Shown in pieces: positions 3,724-63,788 of a stretch of 64,000 bases of DNA. Within the stretch, counting starts at the first letter, position 1, and each line of letters opens with the position of its first letter. The notes beneath the pieces are model-generated. The model was not told the origin of the DNA. It saw only the letters and a program-made list of their open reading frames with translations, and did not search any database. Made by a program: the position numbers and the translations under genes. The DNA is from Candidatus Nomurabacteria bacterium (GTDB lineage: Bacteria > Patescibacteriota > Minisyncoccia > Phycocordibacterales > SBAW01), in contig CALQZS010000001.1 in the NCBI GenBank assembly GCA_943349945.1, forward strand, positions 130,803 to 194,802, written 5' to 3'.

Positions 3724-3828
3724 AGAAATCTTCTATTTATTAATAATCTGCCATTAATAGTGACTCGCAGATATGCCGTAAGTATATCCTACCCCGCTTT
3801 GCCGCCAGGCCGCTTGTGTGGATAAGCC

Positions 3829-3872
3829 CACCCGCGGGTTAAACCCGCAGGTGGAATGTGTGGTGTAATATA
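3829..3872. repeat. REP-like palindromic repeat, family A (left copy)
   Basis: cacccgcgggttaaacccgcaggtggaatgtgtggtgtaatata contains the palindrome gcgggtt-a-aacccgc. A near-identical copy lies at 4575-4618. Confidence 0.6.
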
Positions 3873-3875
3873 CTT

Positions 3876-4556
3876 ATGTCAAATCGGGCACCCATAGCCA
3901 CGGGCGAGTGGTACCATTGCTACACTCGCGGAGTGGACAAGCGTATCGTCTTTGAAACCCGATCTGACTATGAGCGTTTCTTGGCATACCTTTATATAGG
4001 AAACGGTACCAACCTGCTCCGTCTTTCAAACATACAAGACAAGCGTTTGGTGTCCGTACTCACCAATACACGTCTGCAGCGCGGAGAGCCCTTGGTCGAC
4101 ATAGGCGCATACACCCTTATGCCTAATCATGCGCATTTTATATTACGACAAACACACGACCAGGGCATCGCCACCTTTATGCAGCGAGTTTTTACTGGAT
4201 ATACACAATACTTCAACAACAAACACGAACGGACGGGAGCGCTCTTTTCAGGAACATACAAGTCGAAACACATACTGGACGACCGCTATCTAAAGCAAGT
4301 AACTGCCTATGTATTGCTAAACCCGGTGGAATTATTTGAACCCGCATGGAAAGAAGGAGTGGGCAACTTGAACCACATCGAAAAACAGGTTCGCACCTAT
4401 CCTTATTCTAGTCTCGTTGATTTTTATGGGTCACAGCGCCCAGAAAGCAGTATCACGACAAACACGCTGCACGCGTACTATGATCAGCGTCCTAGCCTTA
4501 CAGACATGCTTGCGGACGCGCAGGCATTTTATAGAGAACACGAGCCTAAAGCTTGA
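3876..4556 (+). CDS. REP-associated tyrosine transposase-like (RAYT, IS200/IS605-family Y1 HUH) protein
   Basis: HUH motif YTLMPNHAHFIL with a catalytic-Tyr region. It is flanked by family-A REPs. The start is probably MSNRAPIATGEWYH at 3876. Confidence 0.75.
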   Translation: MSNRAPIATGEWYHCYTRGVDKRIVFETRSDYERFLAYLYIGNGTNLLRLSNIQDKRLVSVLTNTRLQRGEPLVDIGAYTLMPNHAHFILRQTHDQGIATFMQRVFTGYTQYFNNKHERTGALFSGTYKSKHILDDRYLKQVTAYVLLNPVELFEPAWKEGVGNLNHIEKQVRTYPYSSLVDFYGSQRPESSITTNTLHAYYDQRPSLTDMLADAQAFYREHEPKA

Positions 4557-4574
4557 AACACCGCCCGCTCCCCC

Positions 4575-4618
4575 ACCTGCGGGTTAAACCAGCAGGTGAA
4601 ATGTGTGGTGTAATATAT
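4575..4618. repeat. REP-like palindromic repeat, family A (right copy)
   Basis: cacctgcgggttaaaccagcaggtgaaatgtgtggtgtaatata, a direct repeat of 3829-3872. Confidence 0.6.
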
Positions 4619-14036: not shown

Positions 14037-14474
14037 TTACATCTTCCTCGAGTCATACGCCCAATGCAACAGCGCTTGCCGCTGTTTTGGGCGACAAAAA
14101 ATATCTCCAGTTCTACAATTATTTTTGATTTGCATTATATGCCTACGCATAGCGAGCCACCTTTTTATTTGCTTCTCGTCATCATCGGTCCTACGACCCA
14201 TAAAATATCTGCAGTACCACTGAAACCACCCGCGCGGGTCTTGCGGATGTATCCAGCCTTTTGCCTGCCATACCGCAAGCGACTGACTCGCGTTTATGCC
14301 AAAGTAATTCAGCTCTTTGTGCCGCTTCCCATCGGGTGATAATTTTGCACTCTTCCACCAACCTTTTGGGAACTCCTTTGGCTTGTCAGAAAAATATAAT
14401 CCACCGAACACACCAAGCTCGAGCATCTCTTTTGGCGTCAGGTCCGGCGTAAAGCGCGGGTCGAATTTCGTCAT
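14037..14474 (-). CDS. hypothetical protein (Trp-rich, conserved-looking)
   Basis: 145 aa with good coding potential and no recognisable family. Confidence 0.5.
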   Translation of the reverse strand: MTKFDPRFTPDLTPKEMLELGVFGGLYFSDKPKEFPKGWWKSAKLSPDGKRHKELNYFGINASQSLAVWQAKGWIHPQDPRGWFQWYCRYFMGRRTDDDEKQIKRWLAMRRHIMQIKNNCRTGDIFCRPKQRQALLHWAYDSRKM

Positions 14475-46371: not shown

Positions 46372-46419
46372 CAGTGCATTATACGTTTTTTACTACCCTT
46401 CGACTATTCTTTAGGCACA

Positions 46420-46457
46420 AAAAAACCCGCACCAGGAGCCCGGTGCGGACTTTTTTC
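46420..46457. terminator. bidirectional rho-independent terminator
   Basis: aaaaaaacccgcaccaggagcccggtgcggacttttttc. Confidence 0.5.
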
Positions 46458-46620
46458 GGACTCCGGAAGCAAGTGTCTACCGTGTATTAGGTGGGTGCTC
46501 TAAGCGGTACACCACGGTGCCCCGCCACAGCGAGCTCCCGGTAGATTCACTTAAGGACATTTGCCTCCGGGGTCCTGCCGCTATTGTATCAAATTTTTAC
46601 TACAATCCCCCACCCCTTCT

Positions 46621-46645
46621 AACCCACAAGTCTGACTTGTGGGTT
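46621..46645. repeat. REP-like palindrome, family B (copy 1)
   Basis: aacccacaagtctgacttgtgggtt, a 10-bp perfect stem (cccacaagtc/gacttgtggg). Confidence 0.65.
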
Positions 46646-46675
46646 TAGGTTTTACCCGAGCTATAATCTATAGAC

Positions 46676-47539
46676 TTATTTTGTCACAGCAGCCTTTCGC
46701 ATATATACAGAGACGTCTCCATATACGCCCCCAAGCAATGCTCCATCTTTTCCTGATGCCACCAGAAGTTCTATGTTTTTATCTTTAAGGGCAGCAAGAA
46801 TTGCATCGCCACGCACATCTCCCAGTGTGGCGTACATGCGACGAAATGCCTCAAAATCTTTAATAAAACAATCGCCCCCAGCCCCACGTCCTCCACTATG
46901 TACAGGGTTAGTGTGGCTAGCACCGACACGAGGGTCATGCACCAACGCATCGCGCACTCCTTCCCAGTCTCCTCCTTTCGCTTGCACCAGGTCATAGAGC
47001 AAGTTAGTAAACATGACTTTGGTGTATAAAAAACAATTGCCTGCATATTTGACCAACTCTGCATCACAGGCCAAAAGTATACGCGCGTACGGCGCCTCAG
47101 GCAGCACACTAAGCACTGCGCGGGCTTTTTCTTGGTACACAGCAGAGTCTACGGGGATTCCTACAATATTACGATGAGGGTGCGCTGCATCATGCGCCGC
47201 CGTAGCCTCGGTCAAAAACTCAGGGCTGTGTAGCACAAAAATGTCAGGGTATATTTGCTGAAACATCTCTGTCGTGCCTGGCAGTATGGTTGACTTAATG
47301 ACCGCCACTTTTCCTTTGCCCACAAGAGGCAGTACGCGCGCAATAATGGAGCTGTCGAACCCCTCTGGAGTGGTAGGGGTTGGCACCGCAATAAACACAA
47401 TGTCGCACCGGGCTATACGATCTTTGTTTGCTCGATATGGCTCTTCAAGCGCGTAACGTACAACCGTATAGCCACGGTTTTCAAAATCATCTGCATAATG
47501 TCTGCCGATCCACCCCTGCCCAATAAATCCTATGTGCAT
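46676..47539 (-). CDS. nucleotide-sugar dehydrogenase family protein (UDP-glucose/GDP-mannose dehydrogenase-like, short)
   Basis: N-terminal Rossmann fold (GFIGQGWIGRHYA) and the catalytic-Cys motif GGDCFIKD (compare GGSCFPKD). It is bracketed by family-B REPs. Confidence 0.6.
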   Translation of the reverse strand: MHIGFIGQGWIGRHYADDFENRGYTVVRYALEEPYRANKDRIARCDIVFIAVPTPTTPEGFDSSIIARVLPLVGKGKVAVIKSTILPGTTEMFQQIYPDIFVLHSPEFLTEATAAHDAAHPHRNIVGIPVDSAVYQEKARAVLSVLPEAPYARILLACDAELVKYAGNCFLYTKVMFTNLLYDLVQAKGGDWEGVRDALVHDPRVGASHTNPVHSGGRGAGGDCFIKDFEAFRRMYATLGDVRGDAILAALKDKNIELLVASGKDGALLGGVYGDVSVYMRKAAVTK

Positions 47540-47596
47540 TCCCTAGTAACTCGACGACTGAACACAAAGTTACTCGTCGACACCAAACCAGTGTCC

Positions 47597-47621
47597 AACC
47601 CACAAGTCAGACTTGTGGGTT
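47597..47621. repeat. REP-like palindrome, family B (copy 2)
   Basis: aacccacaagtcagacttgtgggtt, 2 nt from the RAYT stop. Confidence 0.65.
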
Positions 47622-47622
47622 A

Positions 47623-48321
47623 TTATTCCAGAATCGCCAAACTGCTCAATTCTGGCACACGTCCCAAGATTAAATCTTGAGCATTCGTACGAAAATCTGC
47701 CGGTGAACAAAATATTTCTGCGAGAATATCCTTTTCAACAACTGCCGCATATATAGAGTTTTCTCCAGCATACTCTTTTAAGCTCGAAAAAGGATACGTA
47801 TCGACAGCCCACTTCCACGCCTCATTAAAATTTTTTGCAGCAGTCACATATCCCCCTGGATATAATTCGAACACATTTTTTACTACTATATACGGGACCA
47901 CGTAACGCAAATGTCGGTCTGTCTCAACTGTACGACTACGATATGCACCTTGGAAAATACTACCTCGCTCACTATATTTTTCGTTAAAATATCGGGACAT
48001 ACTGCCACAAACACTTTGCATAAATCGCGCCACCCCTCTTTCTTGAGTTTCTTTAAGCAAAAGGTGGAAATGGTTCGGCATCAACGTCCAAGCAAGTACC
48101 TTTACTAATGGTCGACGTTCTGGCCAAACAGCAGGGCGTTCAAACATTCCCAGATCACAAATATCTCTCTCCCAAAAATCGGAGCGATGTTCGTCGTTTA
48201 AATAATAAAGGAGTTTTACAAAACGCCGCTTATCAGCCTCATCACGAGTGATAGGCATGCCGCGCGCTCCGCGTTTAACAACATGAACAAAAGAACCCAC
48301 TTCATGAGGTTCCACTCTCAT
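47623..48321 (-). CDS. REP-associated tyrosine transposase-like (RAYT, IS200/IS605-family Y1 HUH) protein, second paralog
   Basis: HUH motif WTLMPNHFHLLL. Divergent paralog of the gene at 3876. Confidence 0.75.
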   Translation of the reverse strand: MRVEPHEVGSFVHVVKRGARGMPITRDEADKRRFVKLLYYLNDEHRSDFWERDICDLGMFERPAVWPERRPLVKVLAWTLMPNHFHLLLKETQERGVARFMQSVCGSMSRYFNEKYSERGSIFQGAYRSRTVETDRHLRYVVPYIVVKNVFELYPGGYVTAAKNFNEAWKWAVDTYPFSSLKEYAGENSIYAAVVEKDILAEIFCSPADFRTNAQDLILGRVPELSSLAILE

Positions 48322-48346
48322 ACCCTTATAGTAGCCCCAAAATCTA

Positions 48347-48370
48347 AACCCACAAGTCAGACTTGTGGGT
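48347..48370. repeat. REP-like palindrome, family B (copy 3)
   Basis: aacccacaagtcagacttgtgggt, 26 nt upstream of the RAYT start. Confidence 0.65.
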
Positions 48371-55524: not shown

Positions 55525-55556
55525 AAAAGCCGTCGCAATTGCGACGGCTTTTCCCT
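55525..55556 (+). terminator. rho-independent terminator (first of two tandem hairpins)
   Basis: aaaagccgtcgcaattgcgacggcttttcc. A second hairpin, atacataggccgggcctatgtat plus a T-run, follows at about 55561-55592. Confidence 0.55.
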
Positions 55557-55582
55557 TTAAATACATAGGCCGGGCCTATGTA

Positions 55583-56122
55583 TTATTTTTTGAATGGGAG
55601 CCCCAAGTGCGCCAAGTAGGCGTGCGCTTGTTTTTTGCCTTTTGCAGTAGTAACGATAGTTACCGCCATGCCGAATACGTCCTTAAGCTCTTCGTCTGCA
55701 GTCTCGGGGAACACTGAGTGCTCGCGGATACCTAGGGTGTAGTTGCCCATCTCGTCGATTGCGGTTGCAGAGATGCCTTTAAAGTCTTTGGTGCGAGGAA
55801 GTGCCACGTGTATGAGGCGGTTAAGGAAGTCTTGTGCGCGTTTACCGCGGAGTGTTACTTGGTAGCCTACGCGGTCGCCGATACGTGTCTTGTAGGTAGC
55901 GATGGACTTCTTTGCACCGCGAGTCACCGGCTTTTGGCCAGTAATGGTTGCAAGACGCTTTGCCACCAGCTCGACTTTTTGCTTGTCCTTTGCCATCTTA
56001 CCCACACCCACAGAGACAACCACCTTGGCTACCTTAGGTACTTGCATGACGTTCTTCCACCCAAAGTCGGCTTTGAGCGCATCAAATGTTGTTTTTTGCT
56101 GTTCTTGTAAAAGGTTTGCCAT
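55583..56122 (-). CDS. rplE: 50S ribosomal protein L5
   Basis: 179 aa. Confidence 0.9.
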   Translation of the reverse strand: MANLLQEQQKTTFDALKADFGWKNVMQVPKVAKVVVSVGVGKMAKDKQKVELVAKRLATITGQKPVTRGAKKSIATYKTRIGDRVGYQVTLRGKRAQDFLNRLIHVALPRTKDFKGISATAIDEMGNYTLGIREHSVFPETADEELKDVFGMAVTIVTTAKGKKQAHAYLAHLGLPFKK

Positions 56123-62483: not shown

Positions 62484-62588
62484 ATTTTTTATTGAGTCTA
62501 GTTCTCTCCGACCTTGCGGAGTAACCTATACCCGGTTAGCTTACTCACTAATAACAGTACGCAACTTCTATTTAATTTAAAATAGTCG

Positions 62589-63788
<1,200 letters not shown>

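Follow-up and report, generated by a model that had tools for sequence, protein, structure and literature searches.

A probable REPtron-like unit in Patescibacteria: a RAYT-type Y1 HUH gene between two perfect palindromes

Classical REP sequences form an imperfect hairpin with a 5' GT[AG]G guide at its foot. To our knowledge, nearly all characterised RAYT/REP systems come from Proteobacteria or one of a few further cultured phyla, and a literature search found no paper on such systems in the Candidate Phyla Radiation. A REPtron consists of a RAYT (TnpA-REP) gene with flanking REPs, as for E. coli YafM (PDB 4ER8), and belongs to class 2 of TnpA-Y1 (PMC6006769; PMC5581495), for which the motif Y-x3-N-P is given (PMC6006769, Table 1). 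Copies of the repeat inside the Y1 gene itself have been reported for subclass 2.4 (PMC6006769). The TIRtron or TIRYT (PMC3733652) corresponds to subclass 2.1, which is Group 1 of Bertels. The flanking 16-mers of Group 1 have a mean of ~12 occurrences per replicon (PMC5581495), some TIRs are reported to be wholly self-complementary (PMC3733652), and no REP-like structures were found beside subclass 2.1 genes (Quentin et al. 2018, PMC6006769).

The window, i.e. the whole stretch of DNA analysed here, is 64 kb long and carries two Y1 HUH genes, one of them referred to as paralogue 1. The features considered are as follows.

3827..3872, plus strand: left one of the two 46-nt repeats of paralogue 1, with hairpin CCACCCGCGGGTT-AA-ACCCGCAGGTGG, then AATGTGTGGTGTAATATA
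3876..4556, plus strand: paralogue 1, Y1 HUH gene, 226 aa from ATG, with NHAH and canonical YVLLNP
4573..4618, plus strand: right one of the two 46-nt repeats, in direct orientation relative to the left one
46621..46645, no strand: PAL-c, solo palindrome, AACCCACAAGTC-T-GACTTGTGGGTT, 12-bp stem
46676..47539, minus strand: UDP-glucose/GDP-mannose dehydrogenase-family (UGDH-like) gene, 287 aa, a context gene outside the element
47546-47558: further degenerate copy of the ndk 3' end
47569..47596, minus strand: remnant copy of the ndk 3' end, ggaCACTGGTTTGGTgTCGACGAGTAAc (..HWFG..VDE and stop), directly outside PAL-b
47597..47621, no strand: PAL-b, palindrome downstream of the Y1 gene, AACCCACAAGTC-A-GACTTGTGGGTT, 12-bp stem
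47623..48321, minus strand: Y1 HUH gene, RAYT-like, 232 aa, containing WTLMPNHFHLLL, Pfam Y1_Tnp
48348..48370, no strand: PAL-a, palindrome upstream of the Y1 gene, ACCCACAAGTC-A-GACTTGTGGGT, 11-bp stem

Three copies of AACCCACAAGTC-N-GACTTGTGGGT were found at 46621-46645, 47597-47621 and 48348-48370, where a first-pass annotation of this DNA had placed them. The ORF at 47623-48321, its HUH motif and the palindromes on both sides of it were likewise seen as described. The stems are perfect, as had been claimed, but the length of 10 bp given for them was too short, the perfect stems being 12, 12 and 11 bp for the copies at 46621, 47597 and 48348, respectively, around a single free centre base. 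When the 24-nt palindrome pattern was scanned over the 64 kb with up to 3 mismatches tolerated, it matched these three sites only, and 100 dinucleotide-preserving shuffles gave no match. Folded as ssDNA, each palindrome gives a hairpin of 10-11 bp closed by a 3-nt loop (dG -10.3 to -11.1 kcal/mol), with z of -4.8 to -5.8 for all three copies. The centre bases on the plus strand are T, A and A in the same order, and, as judged by the centre base, the copy at 46621-46645 is inverted relative to the other two. In strain L020 (99% identical), the centre base of PAL-b is not the same as in the window.

PAL-a lies 7 nt past the ndk stop and ends 26 nt ahead of the Y1 ATG; on the minus strand, that of the Y1 gene, it is followed by TTAGATTTT and is terminator-like. 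PAL-b starts 1 nt from the Y1 stop, and PAL-c, with its opposite centre base, lies 31 nt past the stop of the UGDH-like gene. The flanks of the Y1 gene in the window are thus perfect palindromes of 23-25 nt with CCCACAAGTC arms. Neither the palindromes nor a conserved RNA adjoining them matched Rfam when the whole window was searched at gathering thresholds and 46372-46680 at E up to 1.

The 232-aa protein matches Pfam Y1_Tnp at 38 bits (cutoff 23). It contains the HUH residues H84/H86 (NHFH) and a putative catalytic residue, Y144, within YIVVKNV (Y-x4-N), so that the core features of a Y1 HUH protein, the HUH motif and the Tyr on a Y1_Tnp fold, are present. FQ (F123, Q124) and SS (S179, S180) motifs and a helical C-terminal extension of ~85 aa were also identified; the motif Y-x3-Q was not found, and Pfam gave no DNA-binding domain, even with E relaxed to 10. 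Throughout the homologue family the HUH residues and the Tyr are invariant, and the consensus of the Y motif is Y-[IV]-x-V-K-N-[VP], i.e. Y-x4-N.

The best structural match of the 232-aa protein is 4er8, and the protein scores 37.7 bits with the RAYT HMM NF047646 (cutoff 80) against 15.4 bits with the IS200 HMM NF033573 (cutoff 55), which supports its assignment as a RAYT-type and not an IS200-type Y1 protein. When PDB sequences were searched, neither the family profile nor paralogue 1 returned 4er8, and only marginal matches to ISDra2 came up (E 0.014); the RAYT relationship is therefore one of fold, not of sequence. The naming of the protein as a RAYT in the first-pass annotation thus holds as far as RAYT-type over IS200-type is concerned, but does not extend to the curated NF047646 threshold or the canonical Y-x3-NP.

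TIRYT (subclass 2.1) proteins resemble the clade in length (~232-238 aa, 232 in the window; subclass median 238 aa), in NH[YF]H, FQ and the SS tail, as compared by inspection with Table 1 of PMC6006769, in the conserved C-terminal extension and in flanking repeats of low genomic abundance. However, the C-terminus of the clade gave no HTH-like Pfam signal (Bac_DnaA_C/HTH_23/HTH_28), and TIRYTs, to which the clade is likened by motif inspection only, have long TIRs, many with GGGGWSAS, where short perfect palindromes are found here.

Paralogue 1 is 30% identical to the 232-aa protein, in agreement with the earlier view that the two are only distantly related, and scores 38.3 bits with NF047646, also under the cutoff of 80. 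The 46-nt hairpin repeat that flanks it is unlike the palindrome of the 47623-48321 gene. A different repeat for each gene had been proposed and is confirmed. The many dispersed copies expected of a REP family were not seen in the ~83 kb covered (the window plus ~19 kb of extra flank), which contain three palindromes, all at the Y1 gene, and none away from that locus. A near-identical duplicate of the Y1 gene was not found within the window.

In the relative L120, ndk directly adjoins the dehydrogenase gene without palindromes, and the empty site was seen in both L120 and L119. As compared with this empty site, the Y1 gene and its palindromes are an insertion between ndk and the UGDH-like gene. 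The adjacency in a palindrome-free relative also means that the dehydrogenase stood beside ndk ancestrally and is no bracketed cargo. The suggestion that the third copy brackets the sugar-dehydrogenase gene is therefore abandoned; the UGDH-like gene is highly conserved, and PAL-c, which is not present in relatives L117 and L120, is a solo insertion. An apparent second association of palindrome and UGDH, in L014, was ruled out as the palindrome there sits within a glycosyltransferase-like ORF. The remnant of the ndk 3' end directly outside PAL-b looks like a target duplication marking the right edge of the insert. The apparent target duplication is 40-65 nt long; Y1 peel-and-paste chemistry does not yield such a duplication, which counts against a REPtron-like reading. 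No tnpB was found near the Y1 gene, its neighbours being ndk and UGDH.

The gene-plus-palindrome unit recurs over the whole Patescibacteria radiation. A perfect odd palindrome is present on both sides of the Y1 gene in 54 of 80 homologous loci, and the upstream and downstream arms are identical in all 54. The median distance of the palindrome centre is 30.5 nt from the ATG on the upstream side and 13 nt from the stop on the downstream side. RGTC-N-GACY is the conserved centre, around which the proximal arm segments (7-9 nt) take the form of 36 distinct strings, the arms on the two sides changing in concert. The outer arms are lineage-specific and co-cluster with the protein tree: mean protein identity is 72% at identical arms and 53-55% at three or more arm mismatches (Spearman -0.38). 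The flanked arrangement together with this co-clustering supports the palindrome as the probable cognate partner of the Y1 gene, in line with the model of co-evolving RAYT-REP pairs put forward for this DNA. By their centre bases the flanking copies are not strictly inverted; only a weak bias was observed (T upstream and A downstream in 19 of 54 loci).

None of the 80 homologous loci is syntenic with the neighbours found in the window. Where a single homologue could be followed, the same two neighbouring genes accompany P0105, an identical homologue, at 10 of 10 listed places (24 contigs read). As judged on contigs, the Y1 gene is thus of low copy number and stable position, and this single genomic context indicates that it is not a multicopy IS.

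The homologue loci, 400 kb in all, contain 145 core-type palindromes, of which 128 lie no more than 150 nt from a Y1 gene and 17 are solo copies at a greater distance. The palindrome is not confined to its source genome, its exact 21-mer being found in ~16 other Patescibacteria MAGs of 33-59% GC. The first-pass annotation would have been contradicted by palindromes occurring in this window only and by IS200-like proteins; neither was observed. The 21-mer occupies 19 loci in the other genomes, 17 of them without a Y1 gene within 4 kb, and about half the time it lies in frame inside a gene. The most exact copies per MAG is 4 (5 with a one-mismatch neighbour), and no conserved target motif was evident beside solo copies. 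Palindromes also occur as REPIN-like doublets, inside the coding sequences of unrelated genes and in frame within the Y1 gene itself; housekeeping proteins gain inserts of 7-17 residues from them. Rickettsia palindromic elements (RPE) and intragenic REPs are similar as in-frame palindromic repeats that form short peptide loops in the housekeeping genes of a reduced genome, but window-type palindromes are far shorter, at 21-25 nt or 7-8 aa per unit, and tied to a dedicated Y1 gene.

The locus probably represents a REPtron-like unit from a clade of class-2 (RAYT-type) Y1 HUH nucleases specific to Patescibacteria. In this unit, a single-copy, host-resident gene between two cognate palindromes has been inserted between ndk and the UGDH-like gene, with a solo copy 1 kb off. 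Shared with REPtrons are the Y1 HUH fold, best matched in structure by 4er8, the small number of gene copies (two paralogues in the window, distantly related, and a constant context for P0105), the position of the gene between cognate palindromes with distant paralogues each having their own repeat, and the REPIN-like doublets and in-frame copies within genes, including the Y1 gene. On this reading, the locus is a low-copy form of the REPtron/TIRtron kind from a previously undescribed lineage, with putative catalysis and mobility.

Several features set the locus apart from REPtrons, and the HMM scores, the Y motif, the lack of a guide tag and the low copy number count against this reading. Both window proteins fall under the RAYT HMM cutoff, the Y motif of the clade is shifted to Y-x4-N[VP] from the Y-x3-NP of REPtrons (paralogue 1 keeps YVLLNP), and the copy number is very low, with a palindrome common to genomes that differ widely in GC. 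The palindrome in the window is perfect, takes its orientation from the centre base only and lacks both a bulge and the 5' GT[AG]G tag, and its GTC-N-GAC centre is kept family-wide while the arms vary. Without this guide tag, the mode of recognition cannot be taken over directly from the E. coli model.

A mechanism can be modelled on E. coli TnpA-REP and IS608 TnpA. The Y1 protein would bind the palindrome extruded as an ssDNA hairpin at the replication fork, a putative substrate with an 11-bp stem and a C-N-G loop; since the palindrome is perfect, either strand gives the same hairpin. Protein contacts common to the family may read the GTC/GAC pairs next to the loop, which are invariant, and lineage-specific contacts the outer stem. 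DNA beside the hairpin would then be cut and rejoined via a metal bound by H84/H86 and Y144, and this activity could keep the palindromes, homogenise them and now and then seed new ones, possibly to the benefit of the host.

Some of these features are also those of an autonomous IS200/IS605-like IS of ~775 bp, in which the two palindromes at the gene would be the subterminal hairpins of its left and right ends and the third palindrome the remnant of another copy. Set against the empty site of L120 the unit is inserted DNA, hairpins lie at both ends of a gene with the Y1 HUH transposase core, as in IS608 and ISDra2, the substrates are by analogy probably ssDNA, and the neighbours vary by lineage. 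Even so, an IS is unlikely given the one context of P0105 and the lack of a second identical copy within the window. The protein is longer than those of IS200 (~150 aa), having a C-terminal domain, lacks Y-x3-Q and any tnpB nearby, and scores only ~15 bits with the IS200 HMM. The same symmetric palindrome is present at both ends in place of distinct LE and RE hairpins, palindromes also exist without the gene, as solo copies and doublets, some inside ORFs, and the long target duplication is atypical for the family.

The REPtron-like reading was also weighed against a mainly cis-regulatory role, in which the palindromes would be a duplex operator for a protein dimer (autoregulation) and terminators or mRNA-end stabilisers, not a cleavage substrate, and their spread would be incidental. 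A perfect dyad would also suit a dsDNA-binding dimer as its target, and the two-fold symmetry about a free centre base, the conserved position relative to start and stop, the helical C-terminal domain, the terminator-like PAL-a in the gene direction and a possible Y1 promoter, made up of TTGTGG from the right arm of PAL-a and, 16 nt further downstream, TACTAT, all fit such a role. As the main function it is improbable, however, since a repressor has no need of HUH residues and a Tyr that are invariant family-wide, no DNA-binding domain was found with Pfam at E up to 10, and copies occur as doublets and in the coding sequences of unrelated genes. PAL-b and PAL-c have no T-tracts in the direction of transcription, and a canonical intrinsic terminator fits PAL-a only. 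The palindromes may additionally act as terminator, mRNA-end or promoter-proximal elements for a compact operon.

That the palindrome is the recognition site of another conserved Patescibacteria system (e.g. restriction-modification or recombination), with the Y1 gene adjacent by coincidence, would suit the 17 of 19 loci without a Y1 gene within 4 kb but is very improbable, as most core-type palindromes lie beside Y1 genes, arm sequences follow the lineage of the Y1 protein and no other conserved gene accompanies the palindromes.

It is possible, though doubtful, that the REPtron-like unit represents an ancient, radiation-wide, co-diversifying nuclease-hairpin system, in which symmetric, tag-less hairpins would be recognised in a mode other than the GTAG-guide mode of E. 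coli TnpA-REP, repeats would colonise the loops of essential proteins in genomes with almost no intergenic space, and replication-coupled insertion duplicating 40-65 nt of target would be a new Y1 mechanism. With an invariant centre and 36 arm strings that covary with the protein, the clade is a natural experiment on how a Y1 nuclease reads a hairpin. Any host function should be easier to isolate here because the system is found in ~1 Mb genomes in which repeats are scarce. Such genes are called 'transposase' in MAGs, yet P0105, the one homologue that could be checked, behaves as a fixed single-copy gene. Two further observations were made on related loci: a sister strain carries an additional GTC-N-GAC palindrome not in the window, and members of one Y1 sub-clade have an upstream PG-hydrolase-like gene in common.

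The three palindromes around the Y1 gene reported in the first-pass annotation were confirmed by sequence, and are listed here with the genes discussed.

46621-46645, PAL-c, solo palindrome near the UGDH-like gene, AACCCACAAGTC-T-GACTTGTGGGTT
46676-47539, minus strand, UGDH-like dehydrogenase gene
47597-47621, PAL-b, palindrome downstream of the Y1 gene, AACCCACAAGTC-A-GACTTGTGGGTT
47623-48321, minus strand, Y1 gene (paralogue 2)
48348-48370, PAL-a, palindrome upstream of the Y1 gene, ACCCACAAGTC-A-GACTTGTGGGT
3827-4618, paralogue 1 (second Y1 gene, 3876-4556, plus strand) with direct 46-nt repeats

A 24-nt palindrome pattern, with up to 3 mismatches allowed, matched only PAL-a, PAL-b and PAL-c in the 64 kb and nothing in 100 shuffles. 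In single-stranded form all three fold into hairpins with stems of 10-11 bp and a C-N-G loop; dG is around -10 to -11 kcal/mol and z near -5.

The Y1 gene encodes a 232-aa protein with an NHFH motif and a Pfam Y1_Tnp match (38 bits versus a cutoff of 23). Among 29 aligned homologues (54-65% identity), H84, H86, F123, Q124, Y144, N149 and S180 are invariant. In length, and in having NH[YF]H, FQ and SS motifs, the protein resembles subclass 2.1, the TIRYTs of PMC3733652, but it deviates from the class-2 TnpA-Y1 signature Y-x3-NP (PMC6006769) in having Y-x4-N[VP]. No HTH signal was found in the C-terminal domain. AlphaFold, run on the alignment, gave a confident model (pLDDT 89.5), and by the model's best PDB structure matches the protein is RAYT-type in fold. 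An all-against-all profile search gave 144 clusters at 50% identity (E 1e-30 or better); the Y1 family is therefore moderate-sized.

The best NCBIfam match is the curated RAYT model NF047646 (37.7 bits, below the cutoff of 80). A profile search of PDB sequences reached ISDra2 TnpA alone, marginally. The IS200 model scored 15.4 bits, below its cutoff of 55, and an autonomous IS200-like element is an improbable reading of the unit. No tnpB was found near the Y1 gene. The homologue P0105 was read, as an identical protein, on 24 contigs; in all 10 places shown, which come from independent metagenome samples, its gene lies between the same two genes. With this single context in the 10 places, and only 30% identity between the two Y1 genes of the window, the Y1 unit is not a multicopy IS.

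The pairing of gene and palindrome was assessed in 80 metagenomic loci encoding Y1 homologues (400 kb in all). A perfect odd palindrome occurs on both sides of the Y1 gene in 54 of these, and the upstream and downstream arms are identical in 54/54. Median distances of the centre are 30.5 nt ahead of the ATG and 13 nt beyond the stop codon. Nearly all the palindromes share the centre RGTC-N-GACY, with A or T as the central base in 92%. Among the outer arms, compared over proximal segments of 7-9 nt, there are 36 different strings, always self-complementary; examples are CCCACAAGTC, TGGGGAAGTC, TGGGAAGGTC, TGGGAGAGTC, TGACGGAAGTC, TAGTAGGTC, TACCGAAGTC and TGGAGGATC. Arm types co-cluster with the protein tree, mean protein identity being 72% for identical arms versus 53-55% for at least 3 arm mismatches. 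At some sites doublets form larger, REPIN-like hairpins. The palindrome is thus the cognate partner of the Y1 gene, in the arrangement that defines a REPtron, and the proposal of co-evolving RAYT-REP pairs is supported at the family level by the two-sided palindromes and by arms that track the protein tree.

We consider it probable that the Y1 protein is a nuclease of RAYT type whose substrate is the cognate hairpin in single-stranded DNA. The loop-proximal GTC/GAC would be read by conserved contacts and the distal stem by lineage-specific ones. The Y1 protein would bind and cleave the hairpin, and comparative anatomy suggests mobility and catalysis of the system. Two secondary roles are possible, that of a terminator for PAL-a alone and that of a promoter-proximal element for the palindromes. 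A dyad with a regulatory role only, bound as duplex DNA, is unlikely. Given that 128 of 145 core-type palindromes in the 400 kb lie within 150 nt of a Y1 gene, the site of an unrelated system is a very improbable explanation.

The exact 21-mer was sought in 185,579 species-representative genomes and found at 19 loci, 18 of them in Patescibacteria MAGs. About 1 match in the whole database is expected by chance (our estimate, from 20 specified bases and ~1.2e12 positions). The hosts include Saccharibacteria, Nomurabacteria, Paceibacterota and Kaiserbacteria (GC 33-59%). Flanks are unrelated, the centre position takes any base, and a Y1 gene lies within 4 kb at only 2 of the 19 loci. No MAG has more than 4 exact copies; counting a one-mismatch neighbour raises the maximum to 5. 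No further copies of the Y1 palindrome or the paralogue 1 repeat were found in the window and ~19 kb of extra flank, taken from this genome or one 97% identical to it. With these counts, and with the 21-mer recurring in other Patescibacteria MAGs, a classical REP family, abundant and species-specific, is not borne out.

About half of the 21-mer copies lie in frame within long ORFs, adding 7-17 residues (PQVRLVG, THKSDLW or PTSLTCG). These ORFs are GatB-like, TrmD-like, MnmA-like, glycosyltransferase-like and aminotransferase-like, and include another Y1 gene (just after the HUH motif); their orthologues lack the insert or have other sequence at that position. Copies within ORFs of other genomes are located as follows.

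L005, 6145-6165
L007, 3570-3590
L009, 5283-5330
L011, 4557-4577
L013, 5320-5366
L014, 1754-1774
L017, 7616-7660
L019, 2255-2275

The cognate palindrome also lies in frame inside two Y1-family genes (L037 ~5173 and L098 ~814), in the C-terminal domain of one and, in the other, N-terminally, ahead of the HUH strand; such insertions are reported for subclass 2.4 tnpA-REP genes. REPs lying in frame are documented both for genes at large and for tnpA-REP genes (PMC3733652, PMC6006769), and the in-ORF copies therefore fit a known kind.

An 11 kb part of the window is 100% identical to contig CBAVKF010000003.1 of a Patescibacteria genome, GCA_964805655.1. The gene order is L15-secY-gmk-adk-map-ndk-Y1-UGDH-like-beta-CASP, and the UGDH-like gene is highly conserved in Patescibacteria. 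In the related locus L120 (77% identical protein), UGDH follows ndk by 30 nt without a Y1 gene or palindromes. L119 has a kinase-like gene of 357 aa in place of ndk, 31 nt upstream of UGDH. No palindrome was found downstream of UGDH in L117 or L120. Because of these arrangements, the palindrome-Y1-palindrome unit is taken as an insertion between ndk and UGDH, and PAL-c is a separate solo copy. The dehydrogenase, described initially as bracketed by a third copy, is hence not cargo.

Directly outside PAL-b, at 47569-47596, part of the ndk 3' end persists as a remnant (HWFG..VDE*), within a partly degraded duplicated copy spanning 47546-47596 on the minus strand. In L024/L026, L021 and L036, the end of the upstream gene is likewise duplicated (20-42 nt, z 5-14), the copy abutting the downstream palindrome on its outer side. 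The right boundary of the insert is thereby fixed at the palindrome.

L024, 2371-2420, duplicated 3' end of a PG-hydrolase-like upstream gene
L021, 4545-4590, the same
L036, the same

The duplicated ends look like target duplications of 20-65 nt; they imply either that a long stretch of target was duplicated or that illegitimate recombination took place, facilitated by homology.

The central base of PAL-b is A in the window (47609) versus T in L020 (5434), or T versus A in gene orientation, while the Y1 proteins are 99% identical. Such a flip would be the expected product of hairpin-loop inversion; a point mutation would yield the same result. On sister-strain contig L121 one more GTC-N-GAC palindrome, whose arms differ (TGTAGAAGTC-T-GACTTCTACA, 14090-14110), comes right after the palindrome downstream of rplE; the contig stops 16 nt beyond, and the window sequence at ~55550-55560 is unrelated. 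The L020 and L121 differences hint that turnover of palindromes is ongoing.

Paralogue 1 has the canonical YVLLNP motif and, with its 46-nt direct repeats, is inserted in a type IV pilus/T2SS gene cluster, between the T2SSF and prepilin (N_methyl) genes on the opposite strand (3827-4618 in the window; L123, 6486-7250). The two Y1 genes of the window are 30% identical, in agreement with the distant relationship first noted, and the association of each with its own repeat holds: the 46-nt repeats of paralogue 1 carry a hairpin unlike that of paralogue 2. Relatives of paralogue 1 in L057 (4168-4898) and L003 (2143-2914) are also flanked by long palindromes of their own, e.g. CCACAAAACTTGGTCATC-G-GATGACCAAGTTTTGTGG, one copy in L003 lying inside the gene. 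Both Y1 families are present in L057 and L097, so coexistence is common.

The kind of system, REPtron/TIRtron, is already known. A literature search found no papers describing RAYT/REP systems in CPR; a 2026 preprint mentions only a KEGG term, for an archaeon. What is new is its occurrence in this lineage, together with a symmetric hairpin that has no tag and an invariant centre, a Y motif that is shifted, and a palindrome shared across lineages.

Two other perfect odd palindromes with 12-bp stems sit at the ends of genes: AATACATAGGCC-G-GGCCTATGTATT after rplE (55560-55584), and AAAATAGTCGCT-A-AGCGACTATTTT across the tuf stop codon at 62589 (62579-62603). Neither is related in sequence to the Y1-associated palindromes, and sister strains keep both. 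A conserved RNA-like element of ~135 nt (~46455-46585, minus strand) lies between UGDH and the beta-CASP gene; a promoter-like TTTGATACAAT precedes it, and there is an intrinsic terminator at 46427-46448. L117 and L120 keep the element, with compensatory changes in 7 of 42 predicted pairs. It matches nothing in Rfam and may be an SRP-like or 6S-like RNA that has escaped annotation.
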